Source: Oscillospiraceae bacterium (GTDB lineage Bacteria; Bacillota; Clostridia; UMGS1883; UMGS1540). Taken from it: 64,000 nucleotides of DNA. The notes under the pieces were generated by a model. It was not told where the DNA came from and searched no databases. It was given only the letters and a program-made list of their open reading frames with translations. Location: contig SVJY01000004.1 in NCBI GenBank assembly GCA_015068765.1, positions 8,888 through 72,887 on the forward strand, given 5' to 3'. Position numbers and translations under genes: made by a program. This document shows, one piece after another, positions 33,712 to 42,228 of the stretch (its first letter is position 1; each line of letters opens with the position of its first letter).

Positions 33712-34254
33712 TTACGCCCTTTCCCGCAAGAGCCATCCGCCAATACAGGCGGAGAGGGTGACGGTAATGAAAAACTCAAATAACATATAGCTTCCGTTAT
33801 AAAGAAAGGAATAGAGTACGGCACTGTATCCGTCTCCGGCATTGGTCCGCCAGATGAGAATGCCGGAGAGGAAGTGGCATACAAAGCGAAACAGCACGGC
33901 TACCCCGGTGGCAACCGGCACGGAAAAAGACTTCTTCGGCAGAAGGCGGAATATGCCGCCGGCAAGCCCCAGACCGCCGAACGCCAGTATGTAGTCGAGG
34001 CAGACTACGAGAAGATACGATATTGCGTTTGCTACGGGCGGTGACGGAATACCCGTGAGAAGCATATTCAAAATAGCATACACCACGCCGGACAAAATGC
34101 CCCAACGCATACCGTACAGAAGGCCGGGTACGATAACCGGCAGCATGGAGCAAAGCGTCACACTGCCGCCATACGGTGCATCAAAAAGGCGGATCATCGA
34201 TAAAATGGTAGCGAGGGCAAGCATTACCCCGGTAACGGTCAGTTTCTTTGTCAT
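33712..34254 (-). CDS. thiT: ECF transporter S-component, thiamine-type (ThiT-like)
   Basis: ~180-aa 6-TM S-component directly downstream of a TPP riboswitch. Start at MTKKLTV with AAGGAGGAA RBS. Confidence 0.75.
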   Translation of the reverse strand: MTKKLTVTGVMLALATILSMIRLFDAPYGGSVTLCSMLPVIVPGLLYGMRWGILSGVVYAILNMLLTGIPSPPVANAISYLLVVCLDYILAFGGLGLAGGIFRLLPKKSFSVPVATGVAVLFRFVCHFLSGILIWRTNAGDGYSAVLYSFLYNGSYMLFEFFITVTLSACIGGWLLRERA

Positions 34255-34267
34255 ATGCATTCCTCCT

Positions 34268-34397
34268 TGCATAAAAAAGCTTCCCCGAAGGGAAGCTCGC
34301 AAAACAAATCTTCTCCCTACGTTGGCATTACCCAAATCAGGTTTACGGGTCGGAACCCACTCGTTCCCTCTCAGCCGTTACGGCTCCCCGGATTTAT
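34268..34397 (-). promoter_or_regulatory. TPP (THI-box) riboswitch with terminator expression platform
   Basis: Minus strand CTGAGAGGGAACGAGTGGGTTCCGACCCGTAAACCTGATTTGGGTAATGCCAACGTAGGGAGA matches the TPP aptamer consensus. Followed by hairpin GCTTCCC-TTCG-GGGAAGC plus TTTTTTAT. Confidence 0.88.
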
Positions 34398-34403
34398 AGG
34401 TAT

Positions 34404-35355: not shown

Positions 35356-36807
35356 TTGCTTCCTCTTTTGACCTGTGAACAAATGCGTGCACTCGACCGT
35401 GCAGCAATCGCGGCCGGTATCCCCGGCCGCGTTCTTATGGAAAATGCCGCTACCGCCGCCCTGTCTGTCATACAGGCAGAGCACCCGGCGTATGCGGCCA
35501 TTTTTTGCGGAAAGGGAAATAACGCCGGGGACGGCTTTGCACTAGGCCGACGTCTTTTTGTTTCCGGAATACCGACGGAAATCGTGCTTTGTGCCGATCC
35601 GTCTTCTCTCTCCGATGACGCGGAGGCGAATTATAAAGCCGCCTGCCGGATAGGCGTTCCCACCACATCCTTTGCGGACTTCCAAAGCCGGGCTTCCCTG
35701 CCGGACAGAGGGGTGCTCGTCGATGCCCTTTTAGGCACGGGGATTCGCGGCCCGGTGCAGGGAACGATAGAAGCGGCGATTACCTATATGAACGAAAGCG
35801 GATGCCGAGTGGTTTCGCTGGATATTCCCAGCGGCATCTGCGGTGATACGGGCAAGGTACACGGCACGGCTGTCCGGGCGGATAAAACGGTGACCTTCGG
35901 CTGTCGGAAGCCGGGGCTGTATTCGCCGCTTTCCATAGATTATGTGGGCGAAGTCCTGTGGGATGATATTTCCATTCCTGCCCCCAAGGAGGGCACCCGT
36001 TTTCTGATAGAAAAGCAGGATATAAAACTGCCTGTTCTCTCCCGGGCGGCACACAAGGGCACCCGGGGACACGCCGTGGTTTTAGGCGGCAGTGTGGGTA
36101 TGGCAGGTGCCGTCCGTATGGCAGCACAAAGTGCGGAATACGGCGGTGCAGGGCTGGTGACGGCCATGGTACCTGCTCCTCTTATGCCGGTAATGATGCG
36201 TAGCTTTTACGGCAGCATGTGTACCTCTATTGAAGATGAAATCCCCTCCAAGGCCAATGCAATTTTGGTAGGTCCCGGACTGGGACGGGAGAAGGCGGGT
36301 GAAGCTGCACTTTGCAAGGCAGTCAGCTTCCGTTGTGACACCCTGATTATTGATGCGGACGGTTTGTACCATCTTGCAGACAACAAGCACCTGCTACAAG
36401 CGGCGGCAAAAAAGATTATTCTTACACCGCATCTTGGTGAAATGTCCCGTCTTTGCGGTCTTTCCACAGAGGAAATTGCGGAAAATCGGGTGCAGATTGC
36501 CGAAGAATTTGCTTCCGCCTACGGCGTTACGCTGGTGCTGAAGGGTGCCCATACCGTAGTGGCAGACCCGGCAGGAATAACATATATTAATATGACAGGC
36601 AATGCAGGTATGGCAAAAGGAGGCAGTGGTGATATTCTTGCCGGTCTCCTGTGCGGTCTCGCCGCTTCCGGTGCGGAAAACCCGGCACTGGCAGGCGTGT
36701 ATCTGCACGGCCTTGCAGGCGATTATGCTGCCGAAGCATACACGCCCCGGGCACTCACCGCAGAAATCATAATGAATTTTCTCCCGAAAGCAATAAAATG
36801 TATGTAA
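35356..36807 (+). CDS. nnr: Bifunctional NAD(P)H-hydrate repair enzyme Nnr (epimerase + ADP-dependent dehydratase)
   Basis: YjeF-N domain (GKGNNAGDG) fused to a carbohydrate-kinase-like YjeF-C domain. Confidence 0.88.
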   Translation: MLPLLTCEQMRALDRAAIAAGIPGRVLMENAATAALSVIQAEHPAYAAIFCGKGNNAGDGFALGRRLFVSGIPTEIVLCADPSSLSDDAEANYKAACRIGVPTTSFADFQSRASLPDRGVLVDALLGTGIRGPVQGTIEAAITYMNESGCRVVSLDIPSGICGDTGKVHGTAVRADKTVTFGCRKPGLYSPLSIDYVGEVLWDDISIPAPKEGTRFLIEKQDIKLPVLSRAAHKGTRGHAVVLGGSVGMAGAVRMAAQSAEYGGAGLVTAMVPAPLMPVMMRSFYGSMCTSIEDEIPSKANAILVGPGLGREKAGEAALCKAVSFRCDTLIIDADGLYHLADNKHLLQAAAKKIILTPHLGEMSRLCGLSTEEIAENRVQIAEEFASAYGVTLVLKGAHTVVADPAGITYINMTGNAGMAKGGSGDILAGLLCGLAASGAENPALAGVYLHGLAGDYAAEAYTPRALTAEIIMNFLPKAIKCM

Positions 36808-36860
36808 ATCTCATTTTTTGTACAGAATAATACCGTAGCCGGAGTAACCAGAAATTACAT

Positions 36861-36889
36861 TTGACTTTGCCTGCGGTAAGCTTTATAAT
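36861..36889 (+). promoter_or_regulatory. Sigma-70 promoter of the mazE-mazF-XRE/S24 operon
   Basis: TTGACT, 17 nt spacer, TATAAT. Confidence 0.65.
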
Positions 36890-36919
36890 AAGTATAAAGG
36901 CTATTGTACGAATGGAGGC

Positions 36920-37195
36920 TTGGTTACGTTGGCAGAGCATAAAAAAATATTGGTCAGCCTGCCCAAAGCATTTCTGGCGGAGATTGACGCATGTTTACTT
37001 TCGGAGGAAGTCACCCGAAGCGAGTTTATCCGTCGGGCACTCAGTTTCTATCTGGAAGAAAAGCGGCGAGAGAAAATCCGTCTCCAAATGGAACAGGGCT
37101 ACCGTGAAATGGGCGAAATAAACCTGGAGATTGCCTGTGCCTGTTTCCACGCTGATACCGAAACTACGCTAAGGTATGAGGAGAATTTAGGGTGA
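36920..37195 (+). CDS. mazE: Ribbon-helix-helix antitoxin (MazE/EndoAI-like)
   Basis: Small RHH-type protein ([13 protein letters not shown]...SEFIRRAL) overlapping the toxin start by 4 nt (GTGA). Probable TTG start at 36929, 10 nt after GGAGG. Confidence 0.7.
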
Positions 37196-37542
37196 TTGTA
37201 AAAAGAGGCGATATTTATTACGCGGATCTAAGTCCCGTAATCGGTTCGGAGCAAGGCGGTATCCGCCCCGTTTTGGTGATTCAGAACGATGTAGGAAACC
37301 GCTACAGCCCCACCGTGATAGCCGCGGCAATTACGAGTCAGATAAACAAGGCAAAAATGCCCACACACATTGAAATCGGTGCCGAGGATTGTGGTCTCGC
37401 CCGTGATTCCGTTGTGCTTTTAGAGCAGGTGCGGACGATTGACAAAAGAAGACTAAAGGAAAAAATCGGACATCTGGAAGGGGATATGATGCGGCGTGTT
37501 GATACCGCATTGGAAATCAGCTTCGGCTTGTCCGGAATTTAA
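37192..37542 (+). CDS. mazF: PemK/MazF-family endoribonuclease toxin (EndoA-like)
   Basis: [30 protein letters not shown] signature. GTG start overlapping the antitoxin stop. Confidence 0.9.
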
Positions 37543-37553
37543 AGGAGCAACAA

Positions 37554-38336
37554 ATGACAGTGTTTGGCTATACGCTACGCTTCTTGCGGAAGAAAAATAA
37601 TCTGACGCTGGATGCACTTTCCGAAGCATTGGGCATCGGTGAAATGACGCTTGCGAACATAGAAAACGGTTACATACAGCCAGAGGAAGAGACAGCCGGG
37701 CGACTGGCTGACTTTTTTGGCGTAACCGTGCACTATATGAAAGGGTGCGTGGAGCTTACCGTAACCGATGCGGAAACGGATGCCGCTCACACGCCTCGAC
37801 GGTTTGTACGGCTTCGTCCGATCCCCATGTCTTTTTCCGAATCGGAAGCGGAGGCCCGGCAGGTATTGCCGGAGCAGGAAATTATCCTGCCCCTCCCCGC
37901 CGGTGACCGCAGTGAATATATCGCCGTGCAGGTAACAGACAATTCTATGCTTCGCTACCGTGTTATGGCAGGAGATACCCTGGTGGTACGCCAGGATCCG
38001 CTGAGAATCCGTAACGGCGATTTGGTTCTGCTCATTTCCGATGCAGGACATACGATTTTACGCCGTTATTTCCGAGAAGGCAGTACCGTGCTTTTACGTA
38101 GTGATGCAGAGGATTTACTGCCGCCTATCCGGCTGGCAGACTGTGATAAAACCTGTCGGCTTATCGGCACGGTGGTCCAGATTCGCATAGATGTTACCGG
38201 TGCCTTTGCACATCGGCGGGCACAGAATCCACCGGAGCTGCCGGAGGAAATTCTTCCGCCGCCGGATATGGAAAAGCAGGAGGGTAGCGGTAGTATGGCG
38301 GCATTTATGCACGACTATGGCTTCGGGGAAAATTAA
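37554..38336 (+). CDS. XRE-family HTH fused to S24 (LexA/CI-like) peptidase domain, apparently lacking the catalytic Lys
   Basis: N-terminal Cro/C1 HTH, C-terminal S24 fold with Ser motif TDNSM. At the position of the general-base Lys (HTILRRY) only Arg/Leu are present. Starts 12 nt after the mazF stop. Confidence 0.75.
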   Translation: MTVFGYTLRFLRKKNNLTLDALSEALGIGEMTLANIENGYIQPEEETAGRLADFFGVTVHYMKGCVELTVTDAETDAAHTPRRFVRLRPIPMSFSESEAEARQVLPEQEIILPLPAGDRSEYIAVQVTDNSMLRYRVMAGDTLVVRQDPLRIRNGDLVLLISDAGHTILRRYFREGSTVLLRSDAEDLLPPIRLADCDKTCRLIGTVVQIRIDVTGAFAHRRAQNPPELPEEILPPPDMEKQEGSGSMAAFMHDYGFGEN

Positions 38337-38358: not shown

Positions 38359-38419
38359 GTAAAAACAAAAGGGGCTCTGTAGGCAACCCGATTTTCAAAA
38401 TCGTTTTGCCGCAGACCCC
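38359..38419 (-). terminator. Long imperfect hairpin plus T-run downstream of the SulP gene
   Basis: Minus strand GGGGTCTGCGGCAAAACGATTTT-gaaaa-TCGGGTTGCCTACAGAGCCCC then TTTTGTTTTTAC. The stem shares GCAGACCC with the 13.5-kb palindromes. Confidence 0.55.
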
Positions 38420-38453
38420 TTACTTGTTTATATCCCCATTTCGTATATCTGCC

Positions 38454-40152: not shown

Positions 40153-42228
40153 TTATGAAGTGGGAGAAAGCAGTGTTTGCCAAAGGAAAACCTTTCCGTC
40201 CGTATACTTCTCAGAAGCATCTATCGGGGCACTGACAGAAACTGCTTCGCTTTTGTCAGCCGGAACCTCTACCGTTTCAAAGGACCAGCCCGTCAATTTA
40301 CCGGTTTCATCGTAGAGAGCAATCAGCACCAGAGCAGAAGACCCGGTATACGTTTCTTCAAACTGCACTTCTGCCGCAAAGCTTTCCTTATAGACCACAG
40401 CATCAGAGACGCTGCAATCTTTTCCTGCACGCTGCATAACAGCAGATCGAATCACGTTAACCTCACCGTTTTCATCACACATACATTCTACTTGTGTAAG
40501 CTGCCGGATTTGTGCTTCGATCTCTTCAACGTTATCGGATTGAATTCTGAAAGAATTGCCATTGAGAAGAATTCGGCTTGCACAACGGAAAACAAGGTCT
40601 CCCTCCTTTGGATTGGTAATCCGAAACTCAATACCTTCACCGCTAATGTTGGAAACAATAACGGCTGCATCCATATATCCGCTGTAAACGGGGACGGCAT
40701 TTGTGCTGTACGTGAAGGTATAAGGAAGACTGATGCGATTACCGCCGTTATCCTCTAACCACCAAGAAACACTGTAGTCCTTGTTCTGATTTGGCAGATC
40801 TCTAAACCCCATAAAACCATACGTACCATCTATGTTTTCCTCTGTTTCCTTCAAAAGGCGGCCCGCCGCATCGTATAACCGGGCTTGGATGGTTTCTGCA
40901 GCTGCAGTGATTTCAAAATCCGCACCTAAAAACAACAGAAAATTATCCTGTGCCGACTGATACATATTTACGCGAGCAATCGTTACTAAGCCATTTTTTG
41001 CGGTCATATCCGTAATGTTAACGGCATAAGAATACACATCGAGTTCATAGGTGTGATTTTCGTCCAGGTACGGAATGTACTCTCCGCATTCATAAAAAAT
41101 CGGCAGTGTACTGTCTATATCGGAAAACCGTCCCGAAGCAGGATCATATTCCCCACCGGAAACTCTTGTGGGGGTTGTTTCATAATAAATCCCCTGCAGG
41201 CAATCATCCGAAACTGCCGCTTTAACGAATTTCCCGATCAGTGAGGTCCACTCAGCTTCGTTTTCCCATGGTGCACATACATTGTTGTTGATAGAAATAG
41301 CATCCGTGATTTTATAGTTGGATTCGGTTCGGTTGCTGTCACGAATCAGCAATTCAAGATGCGTACCGTTTATATCCGTAACAGGTGCCGCATTTACAAT
41401 ATAACCGTGTAAAATAGGGACCTCCGTGATTCGGTGTGTATAAGTATACACGGGCGTGAGTGGCGTGCCGTCCGCCTTTTCCAGTTGGAAAGAAACGGTG
41501 TACAGTTTCGTTTGATTCGGTAAATTCCGGAAGCCGATCATACCGTACCCGTCGGAACCCACTTCTTCAAATCCCTGTGAAAACCCGCCATCTGCTGAAA
41601 GTCTTCCTTTACAGACCGCCGTTCCTGCTGTCGTTTCAAAATCCACCCAAAGGGTGTGTAAAAAATCACTCTGCAAACGTTCGGAACCATAAATATGCAT
41701 GACCGTTTTCATGCCGTTTTTAGCACGCATCTCCGTTATGTTGACCATGTCGGAATACACTTCAATATCATAAACGTGATTCCCGTCCAGATAAGGAATA
41801 TATTCTCCGTTAGTTTCAAAAATGGGTAAGGCTTTATCCACGCCGGCAAAACGGCCTGTTGCAGGATTGTATTCTGCATTTTGAATTGTTTCTATGTACT
41901 CTGAACGTGTGATGGCAATAATCTGAGACGCATTGACTCGCACTTCTGCAAAATTCTCTCGGATATCTGCGGCAAGTTGTTCACAGTCCCCGTCAGTAGA
42001 TAAACTGAAGCTAGTGCCGTCAAAATTGACACGCCGTTTGATTGTATAAGTATGTCTCATACTGTCCGGTGTCAGAACCAGGACTTCCACCCCACATCCA
42101 TCAAGAGATTGAACGGCGTCTGCATCCGAAATATATCCTTGCACAGATTCCTCATTCGCACTGCAATGTAGCACGGGAAACAGGGTGAAGCATAGAAGAA
42201 TGCAAAGAAAACGAGTGATTCTTTTCAT
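40153..42228 (-). CDS. Secreted hypothetical protein, 691 aa, with an internal ~200-aa tandem duplication
   Basis: Signal peptide. Two homologous units (YNPATGRFAGVDKALPIFETNGEYIPYLDGNHVYDIEVYS... and YDPASGRFSDIDSTLPIFYECGEYIPYLDENHTYELDVYS...). GC about 45%, lower than flanks. Confidence 0.6.
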   Translation of the reverse strand: MKRITRFLCILLCFTLFPVLHCSANEESVQGYISDADAVQSLDGCGVEVLVLTPDSMRHTYTIKRRVNFDGTSFSLSTDGDCEQLAADIRENFAEVRVNASQIIAITRSEYIETIQNAEYNPATGRFAGVDKALPIFETNGEYIPYLDGNHVYDIEVYSDMVNITEMRAKNGMKTVMHIYGSERLQSDFLHTLWVDFETTAGTAVCKGRLSADGGFSQGFEEVGSDGYGMIGFRNLPNQTKLYTVSFQLEKADGTPLTPVYTYTHRITEVPILHGYIVNAAPVTDINGTHLELLIRDSNRTESNYKITDAISINNNVCAPWENEAEWTSLIGKFVKAAVSDDCLQGIYYETTPTRVSGGEYDPASGRFSDIDSTLPIFYECGEYIPYLDENHTYELDVYSYAVNITDMTAKNGLVTIARVNMYQSAQDNFLLFLGADFEITAAAETIQARLYDAAGRLLKETEENIDGTYGFMGFRDLPNQNKDYSVSWWLEDNGGNRISLPYTFTYSTNAVPVYSGYMDAAVIVSNISGEGIEFRITNPKEGDLVFRCASRILLNGNSFRIQSDNVEEIEAQIRQLTQVECMCDENGEVNVIRSAVMQRAGKDCSVSDAVVYKESFAAEVQFEETYTGSSALVLIALYDETGKLTGWSFETVEVPADKSEAVSVSAPIDASEKYTDGKVFLWQTLLSPTS

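Follow-up and report, generated by a model that had tools for sequence, protein, structure and literature searches.

Why does a gene for a protein resembling the LexA and phage CI repressors lie directly behind a MazEF toxin-antitoxin pair, and what could its product do there? The question arises from a stretch of 64,000 nucleotides of an Oscillospiraceae bacterium (contig SVJY01000004.1, assembly GCA_015068765.1), hereafter the window, in which mazE, mazF and a third gene follow one another on the forward strand between positions 36861 and 38336. The third product, termed XRE/S24 below, combines an XRE-type helix-turn-helix (HTH) with an S24 peptidase-like domain. A sequence-only reading had described it as a LexA-like module incapable of cleaving itself, and had offered two interpretations, a phage- or SOS-responsive switch on the toxin-antitoxin pair or a pseudo-peptidase, of which the second has proved the better. 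We put at roughly 0.6 the probability that the locus is a three-gene mazE-mazF-xre/S24 operon whose third product is a non-cleaving dimeric regulator dosed by the mazE promoter.

An EndoA-type mazEF pair and a third gene in a probable operon

The first two genes encode, as had been recognised from the sequence, a ribbon-helix-helix antitoxin and a PemK/MazF toxin, the GTG start of mazF overlapping the TGA stop of mazE (GTGA). MazE matches Pfam RHH_1 (7.4e-6) and, over residues 6-81, Bacillus subtilis EndoAI (PDB 4ME7 chain E, 1.6e-9), and by homology it is predicted to carry its ribbon-helix-helix N-terminally and a toxin-binding region C-terminally. MazF, an endoribonuclease toxin encoded at 37192-37542, matches Pfam PemK_toxin (PF02452, 2.6e-38) and, over its full length, the EndoA/YdcE structures (PDB 4ME7/1NE8, about 1e-50), and it is 78-82% identical to Ruminiclostridium MazF/EndoA. 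We take the pair to be orthologues of B. subtilis EndoAI/EndoA (NdoA), the ordinary chromosomal MazEF of Firmicutes. With a MazF fold and a coupled upstream EndoAI-like antitoxin, they are assigned by homology to the type II toxin-antitoxin systems, and MazF is predicted to arrest growth by sequence-specific RNA cleavage and to be neutralised by MazE. Neither protein gave any match among the PADLOC defence-system models.

The mechanically called open reading frame (ORF) of mazE extends over 36920-37195 from TTG 36920. When the leader was aligned across 13 closely related loci (eight species-level GTDB genomes, four further contigs and the window), a conserved start appeared at TTG 36929, replaced by ATG or GTG in some loci and lying 10 nt after GGAGG 36914-36918. 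Gene calls made independently in four related contigs likewise yield a MazE of 88 aa. The real start is therefore probably TTG 36929, and the EndoAI-type antitoxin gene would occupy 36929-37195 and encode 88 aa.

A consensus scan over 2.5 kb gave as its top site a near-consensus promoter of the sigma-70 type at 36861-36889, in which the -35 hexamer TTGACT (36861-36866) and the -10 hexamer TATAAT (36884-36889) are separated by a 17-nt spacer and match the consensus at 11 of 12 positions. Three ORFs follow on one strand, overlapping or 11 nt apart and each with a Shine-Dalgarno sequence, and this bears out the single promoter ahead of three tightly packed genes that had been proposed. The close packing of mazF and xre/S24 also stood, except that the gap between them measures 11 nt (37543-37553) and not 12 nt. 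It carries the Shine-Dalgarno sequence AGGAG (37543-37547), and a similarly short spacer with AGGAG is seen in loci L001-L008. No promoter proper to xre/S24 is visible in this gap. One candidate within mazF (TTGACA-16-AAAAAT, 37439-37466) was rejected; 4 of 13 loci lack an intact -35 hexamer there, and conserved codons explain the match.

Beyond the third gene a long hairpin (38363-38429) lies between the convergent xre/S24 and sulP genes, with a minimum free energy of -31.5 kcal/mol and a z of -8.0 relative to shuffled sequences. A signal scan flagged it as a terminator-like site on the minus strand, and hairpins also occur 3' of the XRE/S24 stop codon in most of the related loci. It is probably a bidirectional terminator that closes the three-gene operon. 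An Rfam scan of the operon region revealed no structured RNA element.

The MazF orthologues of B. subtilis and Staphylococcus aureus are specific for UACAU (cited in PMC5308263), and this provides the predicted site for the toxin studied here. In 6 of the 13 loci (L002, L003, L004, L006, L009 and L010) a TACAT, the corresponding DNA sequence, has its last base at the first position of the mazE start codon (GGTTACATTGGCAG), and in some species MazF could, from the position of this predicted site, cleave the mRNA of its own operon 4 nt upstream of the mazE start; the equivalent position in the window (36924-36931) reads TACGT. Moreover, every XRE/S24 gene carries one TACAT at its Gly-Tyr-Ile codons (37671-37675 in the window), and it is kept because these codons are invariant.

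A LexA/CI-type protein that has lost the hallmarks of self-cleavage

The third gene (37554-38336) encodes 260 aa and was characterised by Pfam matches, alignments and a structural model. Its HTH (residues 4-60, nt 37563-37733) matches HTH_3 at 5e-12 and its S24-like domain (residues 115-208, nt 37896-38177) matches Peptidase_S24 at 3.4e-13. Between them lie a linker and the former cleavage-site region (residues 65-110), and a C-terminal tail follows (residues 212-260). Among phage families the best match is PHROG 4, comprising CI-type repressors (2.8e-18). An AlphaFold2 model built from 19 homologues, with a mean predicted local distance difference test (pLDDT) score of 71, retrieved with Foldseek the C-terminal domains of Thermotoga maritima, Mycobacterium tuberculosis and Escherichia coli LexA and of lambda CI at 3e-7 to 1e-4. 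The modelled C-terminal fold is of the LexA/CI type, and the Pfam and Foldseek results together confirm the proposed joining of an XRE-HTH to an S24 LexA/CI-type domain. As in LexA and CI, this domain would serve as the dimerisation module of a DNA-binding repressor, and it might also bind a partner or ligand. Membership of a known anti-phage defence system was rejected, since the PADLOC models matched XRE/S24 through the HTH alone, by generic similarity to the N-terminal regions of HTH_VI, RmrA and CapH.

The decisive features concern the catalytic dyad. The sequence-only reading had noted that the serine motif TDNSM (residues 128-132) is retained and that the general-base lysine is missing from HTILRRY (residues 166-172), and both statements were upheld. 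Ser131 (TCT 37944-37946) aligns with LexA S119, and Arg170 (CGC 38061-38063) with LexA K156. The latter correspondence was obtained in three independent alignments, namely a HMMER family profile against solved E. coli LexA chains (7B5G/1JHF), a MAFFT alignment that took in a genuine LexA with VAAG, GDSM and TVKR motifs, and a hmmalign alignment that used E. coli LexA as the reference. All 19 aligned family members have this arginine, and so do nine further members. The Ser131 column holds Ser in 15 of the 19 and Thr in the other four, while more distant mazF-linked relatives carry Asp (P0166) or Leu (P0190); P0153 has Cys in the Arg170 column. A lysine properly placed elsewhere would speak for an active dyad, and the alignments show none. 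Throughout the S24 domain of the 19 sequences no column has a conserved Lys, the best containing Lys in just 8 of 19, and K199, the sole Lys in this domain of the window protein, is not conserved.

The cleavage site has been lost as well. No Ala-Gly or Cys-Gly scissile site is conserved in residues 90-108 in the family alignments. No other part of the protein varies as much as this segment, which has no conserved Gly, and the true LexA aligned beside it reads VAAG there; residues 95-105 are modelled with a pLDDT below 50. It is preceded by an invariant Leu87-x-Pro89, Pro89 lying in a hairpin that replaces the cleavage site. For the LexA-like superfamily a Ser-Lys dyad and a conserved Ala-Gly cleavage site have been stated as hallmarks of all members (PMC7101444), and LexA K156R serves as an uncleavable repressor in vivo (PMC5760743). 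Since the lysine is an invariant arginine, the Ala-Gly site is gone and the serine is not strictly kept, XRE/S24 is best regarded as a CI/LexA-like pseudo-peptidase that should not autocleave. Judged by its alignments, it has the two-domain architecture of the LexA/CI repressors and lacks the lysine and the scissile bond that define the catalytic members. The non-autocleaving module postulated earlier is supported on all three counts of missing lysine, missing Ala-Gly or Cys-Gly and LexA/CI fold.

One may ask whether XRE/S24 is nonetheless a true self-cleaving sensor, responsive to SOS/RecA* or pH, that employs Ser131 with Arg170 or with some other base. Ser131 is kept in the window protein and in 15 of the 19 relatives, the S24 fold is intact, and self-cleaving XRE-S24 regulators are known in Firmicutes, namely PrlP (PMC12273997) and IrvR (PMC7101444). 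However, there is no lysine at hand and no conserved Ala-Gly or Cys-Gly, an invariant proline stands in the replacing hairpin, the serine has become Thr, Asp or Leu in relatives, and the K156R substitution abolishes LexA cleavage in vivo (PMC5760743). We judge such a sensor to be very improbable. Given the loss of dyad and cleavage site, the protein would be unable to switch by cleaving itself in response to RecA* or pH, and an SOS/RecA*-responsive switch was discarded because the dyad is incomplete, the cleavage site missing and the serine variable. The phage- or SOS-responsive switch of the sequence-only reading is likewise unsupported, there being no lysine, no cleavage site and no phage relatives in the collections searched. 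Compared with LexA, lambda CI, HdiR, IrvR and PrlP, the window protein shares the two-domain architecture, the C-terminal fold and the SM motif at the nucleophile; it differs in its invariant Arg for Lys, in the serine that varies within its family, in the absence of a scissile site and in the extra conserved tail of 50 residues.

This tail, with the pattern RRAQNPPxxPEEILPPP...Y.F, is acidic and rich in proline and aromatic residues, and it is kept within the narrow family although predicted to be disordered. MazE-type antitoxins grip MazF via intrinsically disordered acidic C-termini, as in the MazE-MazF structures including 4ME7, and XRE/S24 might by analogy bind MazF or MazE directly, through the tail or the S24-like domain, as a second antitoxin or an anti-antitoxin. 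The conservation of a disordered tail would be in keeping with this. It bears no sequence similarity to the MazE C-terminus, however, and is missing from the divergent mazF-linked relatives P0153, P0166, P0190 and P0158, so that direct modulation of the toxin appears improbable.

One sequence retrieved, P0154 (131 aa), has its last 80 residues identical to the C-terminal part of P0028, preceded by an extremely acidic, low-complexity stretch of 50 residues. It is probably a frameshift or assembly artefact and not a true fusion.

Linkage to mazEF and the wider Arg-type class

The order mscL/nnr-mazE-mazF-XRE/S24 is present in all 13 close loci, and what lies downstream of XRE/S24 varies between sulP, a gene for a 649-aa protein of unknown kind, and phage genes for portal and capsid. 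Identities within these loci are 85-96% for MazF, 75-93% for MazE, 57-73% for Nnr and 51-66% for XRE/S24. Four divergent candidates were chosen by the N-terminal signature that the mazF-linked family has to itself, MTLFGYTLRFLR...NIExGYI, and all four are linked to mazF. P0153 (43% identity) begins 19 nt after mazF (L018) and P0190 (28%) 4 nt after it (L020), while P0166 (29%) and P0158 lie within nnr-mazE-mazF-orfX-XRE/S24 arrays (L019 and L025). XRE/S24 has here diverged to as little as 28% identity, with MazF still at 73-84%, and the mazF-XRE/S24 junction measures 4-19 nt in all 15 directly adjacent loci. Fortuitous adjacency, the explanation that the sequence-only reading had set against its own proposal, is refuted by the linkage in 13/13 close and 4/4 divergent loci. 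These comparisons indicate that the association is old and maintained, and not a chance adjacency in one genome.

The mazF-linked family is, as far as these searches reach, tiny and sharply bounded. A word-indexed search of 5.8 billion proteins found 22 XRE/S24 clusters at 47-100% identity, a profile search with the C-terminal part found 30 clusters, the next match being a true LexA at 8.8e-6, and an exhaustive HMMER search of 1.84 billion representatives returned two XRE/S24 representatives below 1e-30. In a phage collection the best match was at 23% identity (Paenibacillus phage CI-like repressors), and in a plasmid collection at 28%, to a canonical Lys/Ala-Gly protein that is not mazF-linked; IMG/VR yielded no relatives, and a metagenome profile scan (alignment A1) gave one weak match confined to the HTH. 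The window genes around the operon belong to the core chromosome (ThiT, Asp23, MscL, Nnr and SulP). Descent from a phage or plasmid, or location in a prophage immunity region, was rejected in view of the distant best matches, the lack of IMG/VR relatives and these surrounding genes. The operon lies in the core chromosome of a gut bacterium of the Ruminococcaceae/Clostridia.

The arginine is not peculiar to this family. We examined the 148 best S24 matches from the 1.84-billion-protein library (proteins P0155-P0300) in hmmalign columns; at the LexA K156 column Arg occurs in 78 and Lys in 67 (66 on a recount), in a ranking that is biased in that the query profile itself carries Arg. An Ala-Gly-like site is absent from 74 of the 78 Arg-type sequences, 63 of which keep the serine. 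The Lys-type proteins show GDSM...TVKR, and a crude pattern search finds an Ala-Gly-like site in 38 of 66 of them. The Arg-type signature can be written D[DN]SM...[VIL][VIL]R[RK] without an Ala-Gly site, and the window protein matches it exactly. Many clusters of apparently non-cleaving XRE-S24 proteins exist, and the Lys-to-Arg change seems to be a class character and not special to the window gene; no description of the class was found in the literature searched. The mazF-linked branch differs from the remainder in being very small and in possessing its own N-terminal signature and C-terminal tail, the other members being located in other gene contexts. Some Arg-type genes occur near sporulation genes (L021:4001-4606, L022:1068-1673 and L025:2683-4379): those of L021 and L022 have gpr (Peptidase_A25) upstream, and spoIIP lies convergent to or near those of L022 and L025, the mazEF-orfX-XRE/S24 array of L025 abutting spoIIP. 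This hints that the class was earlier anchored in a sporulation neighbourhood.

These findings bear on whether XRE/S24 is simply a hitch-hiker, that is, an Arg-type chromosomal transcription factor unrelated to MazEF, placed there by local rearrangement and using the nearest promoter. In favour of this, the Arg-type class is a large one (78/148), and P0156, which carries the signature, sits elsewhere, in a gpr/spoIIP neighbourhood; the L025 gene lies between the mazEF-orfX cluster and spoIIP, and the entire region is syntenic core chromosome. Against this, the mazF junction is held at 4-19 nt in the 15 adjacent loci while the other flank changes, the 11-nt gap contains no visible independent promoter, and the family has been found only in the mazEF context. 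We therefore consider a mere passenger unlikely.

Sister lineages whose MazF is 81-82% identical show the order nnr-alr-mazE-mazF followed by a different gene, orfX, and lack XRE/S24. OrfX is a conserved protein of 112-195 aa, encoded right after mazF in other Clostridia (L013:4341-4928, L014:4341-4928, L015:4484-4963, L016:4489-4968, L017:4381-4911, L019:1437-1775 and L025:2182-2592) and overlapping mazF by 8 nt in L013 and L014. It has an N-terminal signal or transmembrane segment, a beta-rich C-terminal domain with the motif …GxxLIxxxxxExIxRxG…ATxKGGxxDxxxGxDLxNGxxxPxNHLLIVPxADGRGI…MIKGxYT, and no Pfam match. Homology between XRE/S24 and this third gene of the sister lineages was considered and dismissed, the two being unrelated. 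OrfX may be a more widespread, unstudied partner of EndoA-type MazEF.

The flanks of the operon vary in other respects. In the focal lineage no alr stands between nnr and mazE, and Nnr (35356-36807) is a full YjeF_N + Carb_kinase fusion, to be compared with L013-L017. In L015 and L016 the kinase domain is fused to the holo-acyl carrier protein synthase ACPS, and ydcC and alr follow in a Bacillus-like order. Two related genomes carry phage-like genes 0.7-1 kb 3' of XRE/S24 (L011:2494-6739 and L012:3633-5858), encoding an SU10-type portal and, in L011, also a Mu gpT-like/Phage_capsid_4 major capsid protein. No integrase was seen in the stretches examined, and an integration hot spot beside the operon is possible. 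In L009 a large serine recombinase (Resolvase + Recombinase + Zn_ribbon_recom; L009:321-1679) separates mutS2 from asp23 as an insertion on the upstream side of the conserved mscL-nnr-mazEF stretch.

Elsewhere in the window, on the minus strand, a thiamine pyrophosphate riboswitch (Rfam RF00059, 70.5 bits) at 34297-34400 lies upstream of a gene for a ThiT/YuaJ-type thiamine energy-coupling factor S-component (33712-34335). The mechanical ORF start of this gene overlaps the riboswitch, and its true start is probably further downstream for that reason. A 691-aa predicted secreted protein, encoded on the same strand at 40153-42228, contains at least two long internal repeats (…EYNPATGRFAGVDKALPIFETNGEYIPYLDGNHVYDIEVYSDMVNITEMRAKNG… and …EYDPASGRFSDIDSTLPIFYECGEYIPYLDENHTYELDVYSYAVNITDMTAKNG…) and has no Pfam match.

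Regulatory DNA and the proposed role

If XRE/S24 binds DNA, where might it do so? The nnr-mazE spacer was compared across the 13 loci and contains four conserved blocks. Block A (TTTTTTGTACAGAATAATACCGTAGCC, 27 nt, 36814-36840) begins 6 nt after the nnr stop codon and is among the most conserved intergenic stretches. It holds an imperfect palindrome (36816-36827) centred on TGTACA (36819-36824), which is of the TGYRCA type. The promoter had been described as containing an inverted repeat, and this is true in a weak sense only: the single repeat is this palindrome, about 35 nt upstream of the -35 hexamer. Block B (CAGAAATTACA) is fused to the -35 hexamer, extends with the promoter over 36849-36889, and is, together with that hexamer, invariant or nearly so. 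In the 5' leader (36890-36928) a short, variable palindrome lies close to the transcription start, and the ribosome-binding block, ACGAATGGAGGCTTGGTTAC, which includes GGAGG 36914-36918, is highly conserved. Blocks A and B and the ribosome-binding block recur in L025.

Around the -10 hexamer and the transcription start there are GTATA-type palindromes whose arms differ between loci. A promoter AATTTGAC...TATAAT with such palindromes also precedes mazE in lineages without XRE/S24; the palindromes are for this reason tentatively assigned to the ribbon-helix-helix protein MazE, and are more likely to be MazE operators. Block A is then a candidate operator, the sole candidate left for an HTH dimer. 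It could alternatively be a roadblock for read-through from nnr, or an element of the nnr 3' end.

We propose that, with no promoter of its own and its start 11 nt behind mazF, XRE/S24 would be produced at a dose that follows the mazE promoter and hence the autoregulation exerted by MazE/MazEF. The presumed dimer may feed back on the operon, the TGTACA palindrome of block A being the candidate site, or it may relay the state of the toxin-antitoxin promoter to other genes, in the manner of Listeria sigma-B read-through or of PaaR2. Both themes have precedents. In Listeria transcription from mazEF continues into the sigma-B operon behind it (PMC5308263), and in a cryptic prophage of E. coli O157:H7 the toxin-antitoxin operon paaR2-paaA2-parE2 includes a lambda-CI-like regulator (PMC8630535).

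The window locus resembles EndoAI/EndoA (NdoAI/NdoA, MazEF-bs; 4ME7) of B. subtilis in the strong full-length match of MazF and the more modest match of MazE, in the layout of the antitoxin and in its chromosomal core-genome setting, and there are further orthologues in Staphylococcus and Listeria. It differs in having no alr between nnr and mazE, where sister Clostridia show the usual nnr-alr-mazE-mazF, and in that its downstream passenger is a single CI/LexA-like pseudo-peptidase and not an rsb/sigB cluster.

With paaR2-paaA2-parE2 it shares the presence of a CI-like transcription factor in the operon of a toxin-antitoxin pair. Like the tripartite systems with a dedicated transcriptional regulator, paaR2-paaA2-parE2 and omega-epsilon-zeta, the window locus has a regulator gene linked to the pair, here on the same strand and predicted to share its promoter and terminator. 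The toxin is MazF and not ParE, however, and the regulator gene is last, in core chromosome and without phage relatives, whereas paaR2 comes first and lies in a prophage immunity region. Moreover, PaaA2 has no DNA-binding domain, in contrast to MazE with its ribbon-helix-helix, so that here DNA binding is not left to the regulator alone. The arrangement joins two known themes, the mazEF operon that carries regulatory passengers and the toxin-antitoxin operon whose third gene is CI-like, and is a new, narrowly distributed form of both, built from an Arg-type S24 protein.

It is a short step from these precedents to a stricter interpretation, in which XRE/S24 is a dedicated third component of a tripartite MazEF and, like PaaR2 or omega, the repressor or activator of the operon, binding the palindrome block upstream of the mazE promoter and receiving a signal through its degenerate S24 pocket or its tail. 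The linkage does persist over deep divergence (XRE/S24 at 28%, MazF at 73-84%), blocks A and B are conserved beyond the core hexamers in lineages with the gene, a CI-like regulator inside a toxin-antitoxin operon is on record (PMC8630535), and a family-specific conserved tail suggests interaction with a partner. Yet the usual need for such a component, an antitoxin without a DNA-binding domain, is absent where MazE keeps its ribbon-helix-helix; block A stands apart from the promoter at a variable spacing, and the palindromes at -10 and +1 are present also where XRE/S24 is absent. A dedicated third component is possible but, on balance, doubtful, though somewhat less so than the mere passenger considered above.

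Several of these observations also weigh against our broader proposal of a promoter-dosed, non-cleaving dimeric regulator. Alongside the ribbon-helix-helix of MazE, a third regulator is not obviously needed. That the three genes form one transcription unit we infer from spacing and consensus sites only. OrfX separates mazF from XRE/S24 in the two divergent lineages L019 and L025, P0156 has the Arg signature without being linked to mazF, and the whole mscL-nnr-mazEF-XRE/S24 stretch is syntenic, the conserved adjacency being due in part to vertical inheritance of the region. Block A lies anywhere from about 8 to about 150 nt from the promoter in different loci, and its conservation is confounded with the nnr 3' end. 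Its motif has no convincing second copy in the window or in the related loci retrieved, and a regulon search with it was dropped on this account. Finally, the predicted MazF site UACAU occurs 15 times in XRE/S24 mRNA against 16.6 expected, and the idea that the third-gene mRNA is MazF-resistant was abandoned for want of any depletion.

A more specific version of the non-cleaving regulator can be envisaged, in which the Arg-type S24 domain is a sensing pseudo-peptidase whose Ser/Arg pocket, or tail, binds a ligand or an interacting protein, for instance MazE, MazF or a protease adaptor, and gates the expression or activity of the EndoA toxin. We offer this tentatively and think it unlikely as it stands; if true, it would constitute a previously undescribed tripartite MazEF and provide a first function for a large class of non-cleaving LexA-like proteins.

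EndoA-type MazEF is nearly universal in Firmicutes, and debate continues over what it does physiologically and over the inputs and outputs of its regulation. A CI-like regulator long kept at mazEF is a natural handle on what the state of the mazEF promoter is used for. As to the S24 family, about half of the closest domains carry Arg at the K156 position and no cleavage site, contrary to the statement for all members in PMC7101444, and this suggests that a large class of non-cleaving LexA-like regulators exists. For Arg-type genes without the cleavage hallmarks, an automated label of 'S24 peptidase' or 'LexA-like' would therefore be misleading.

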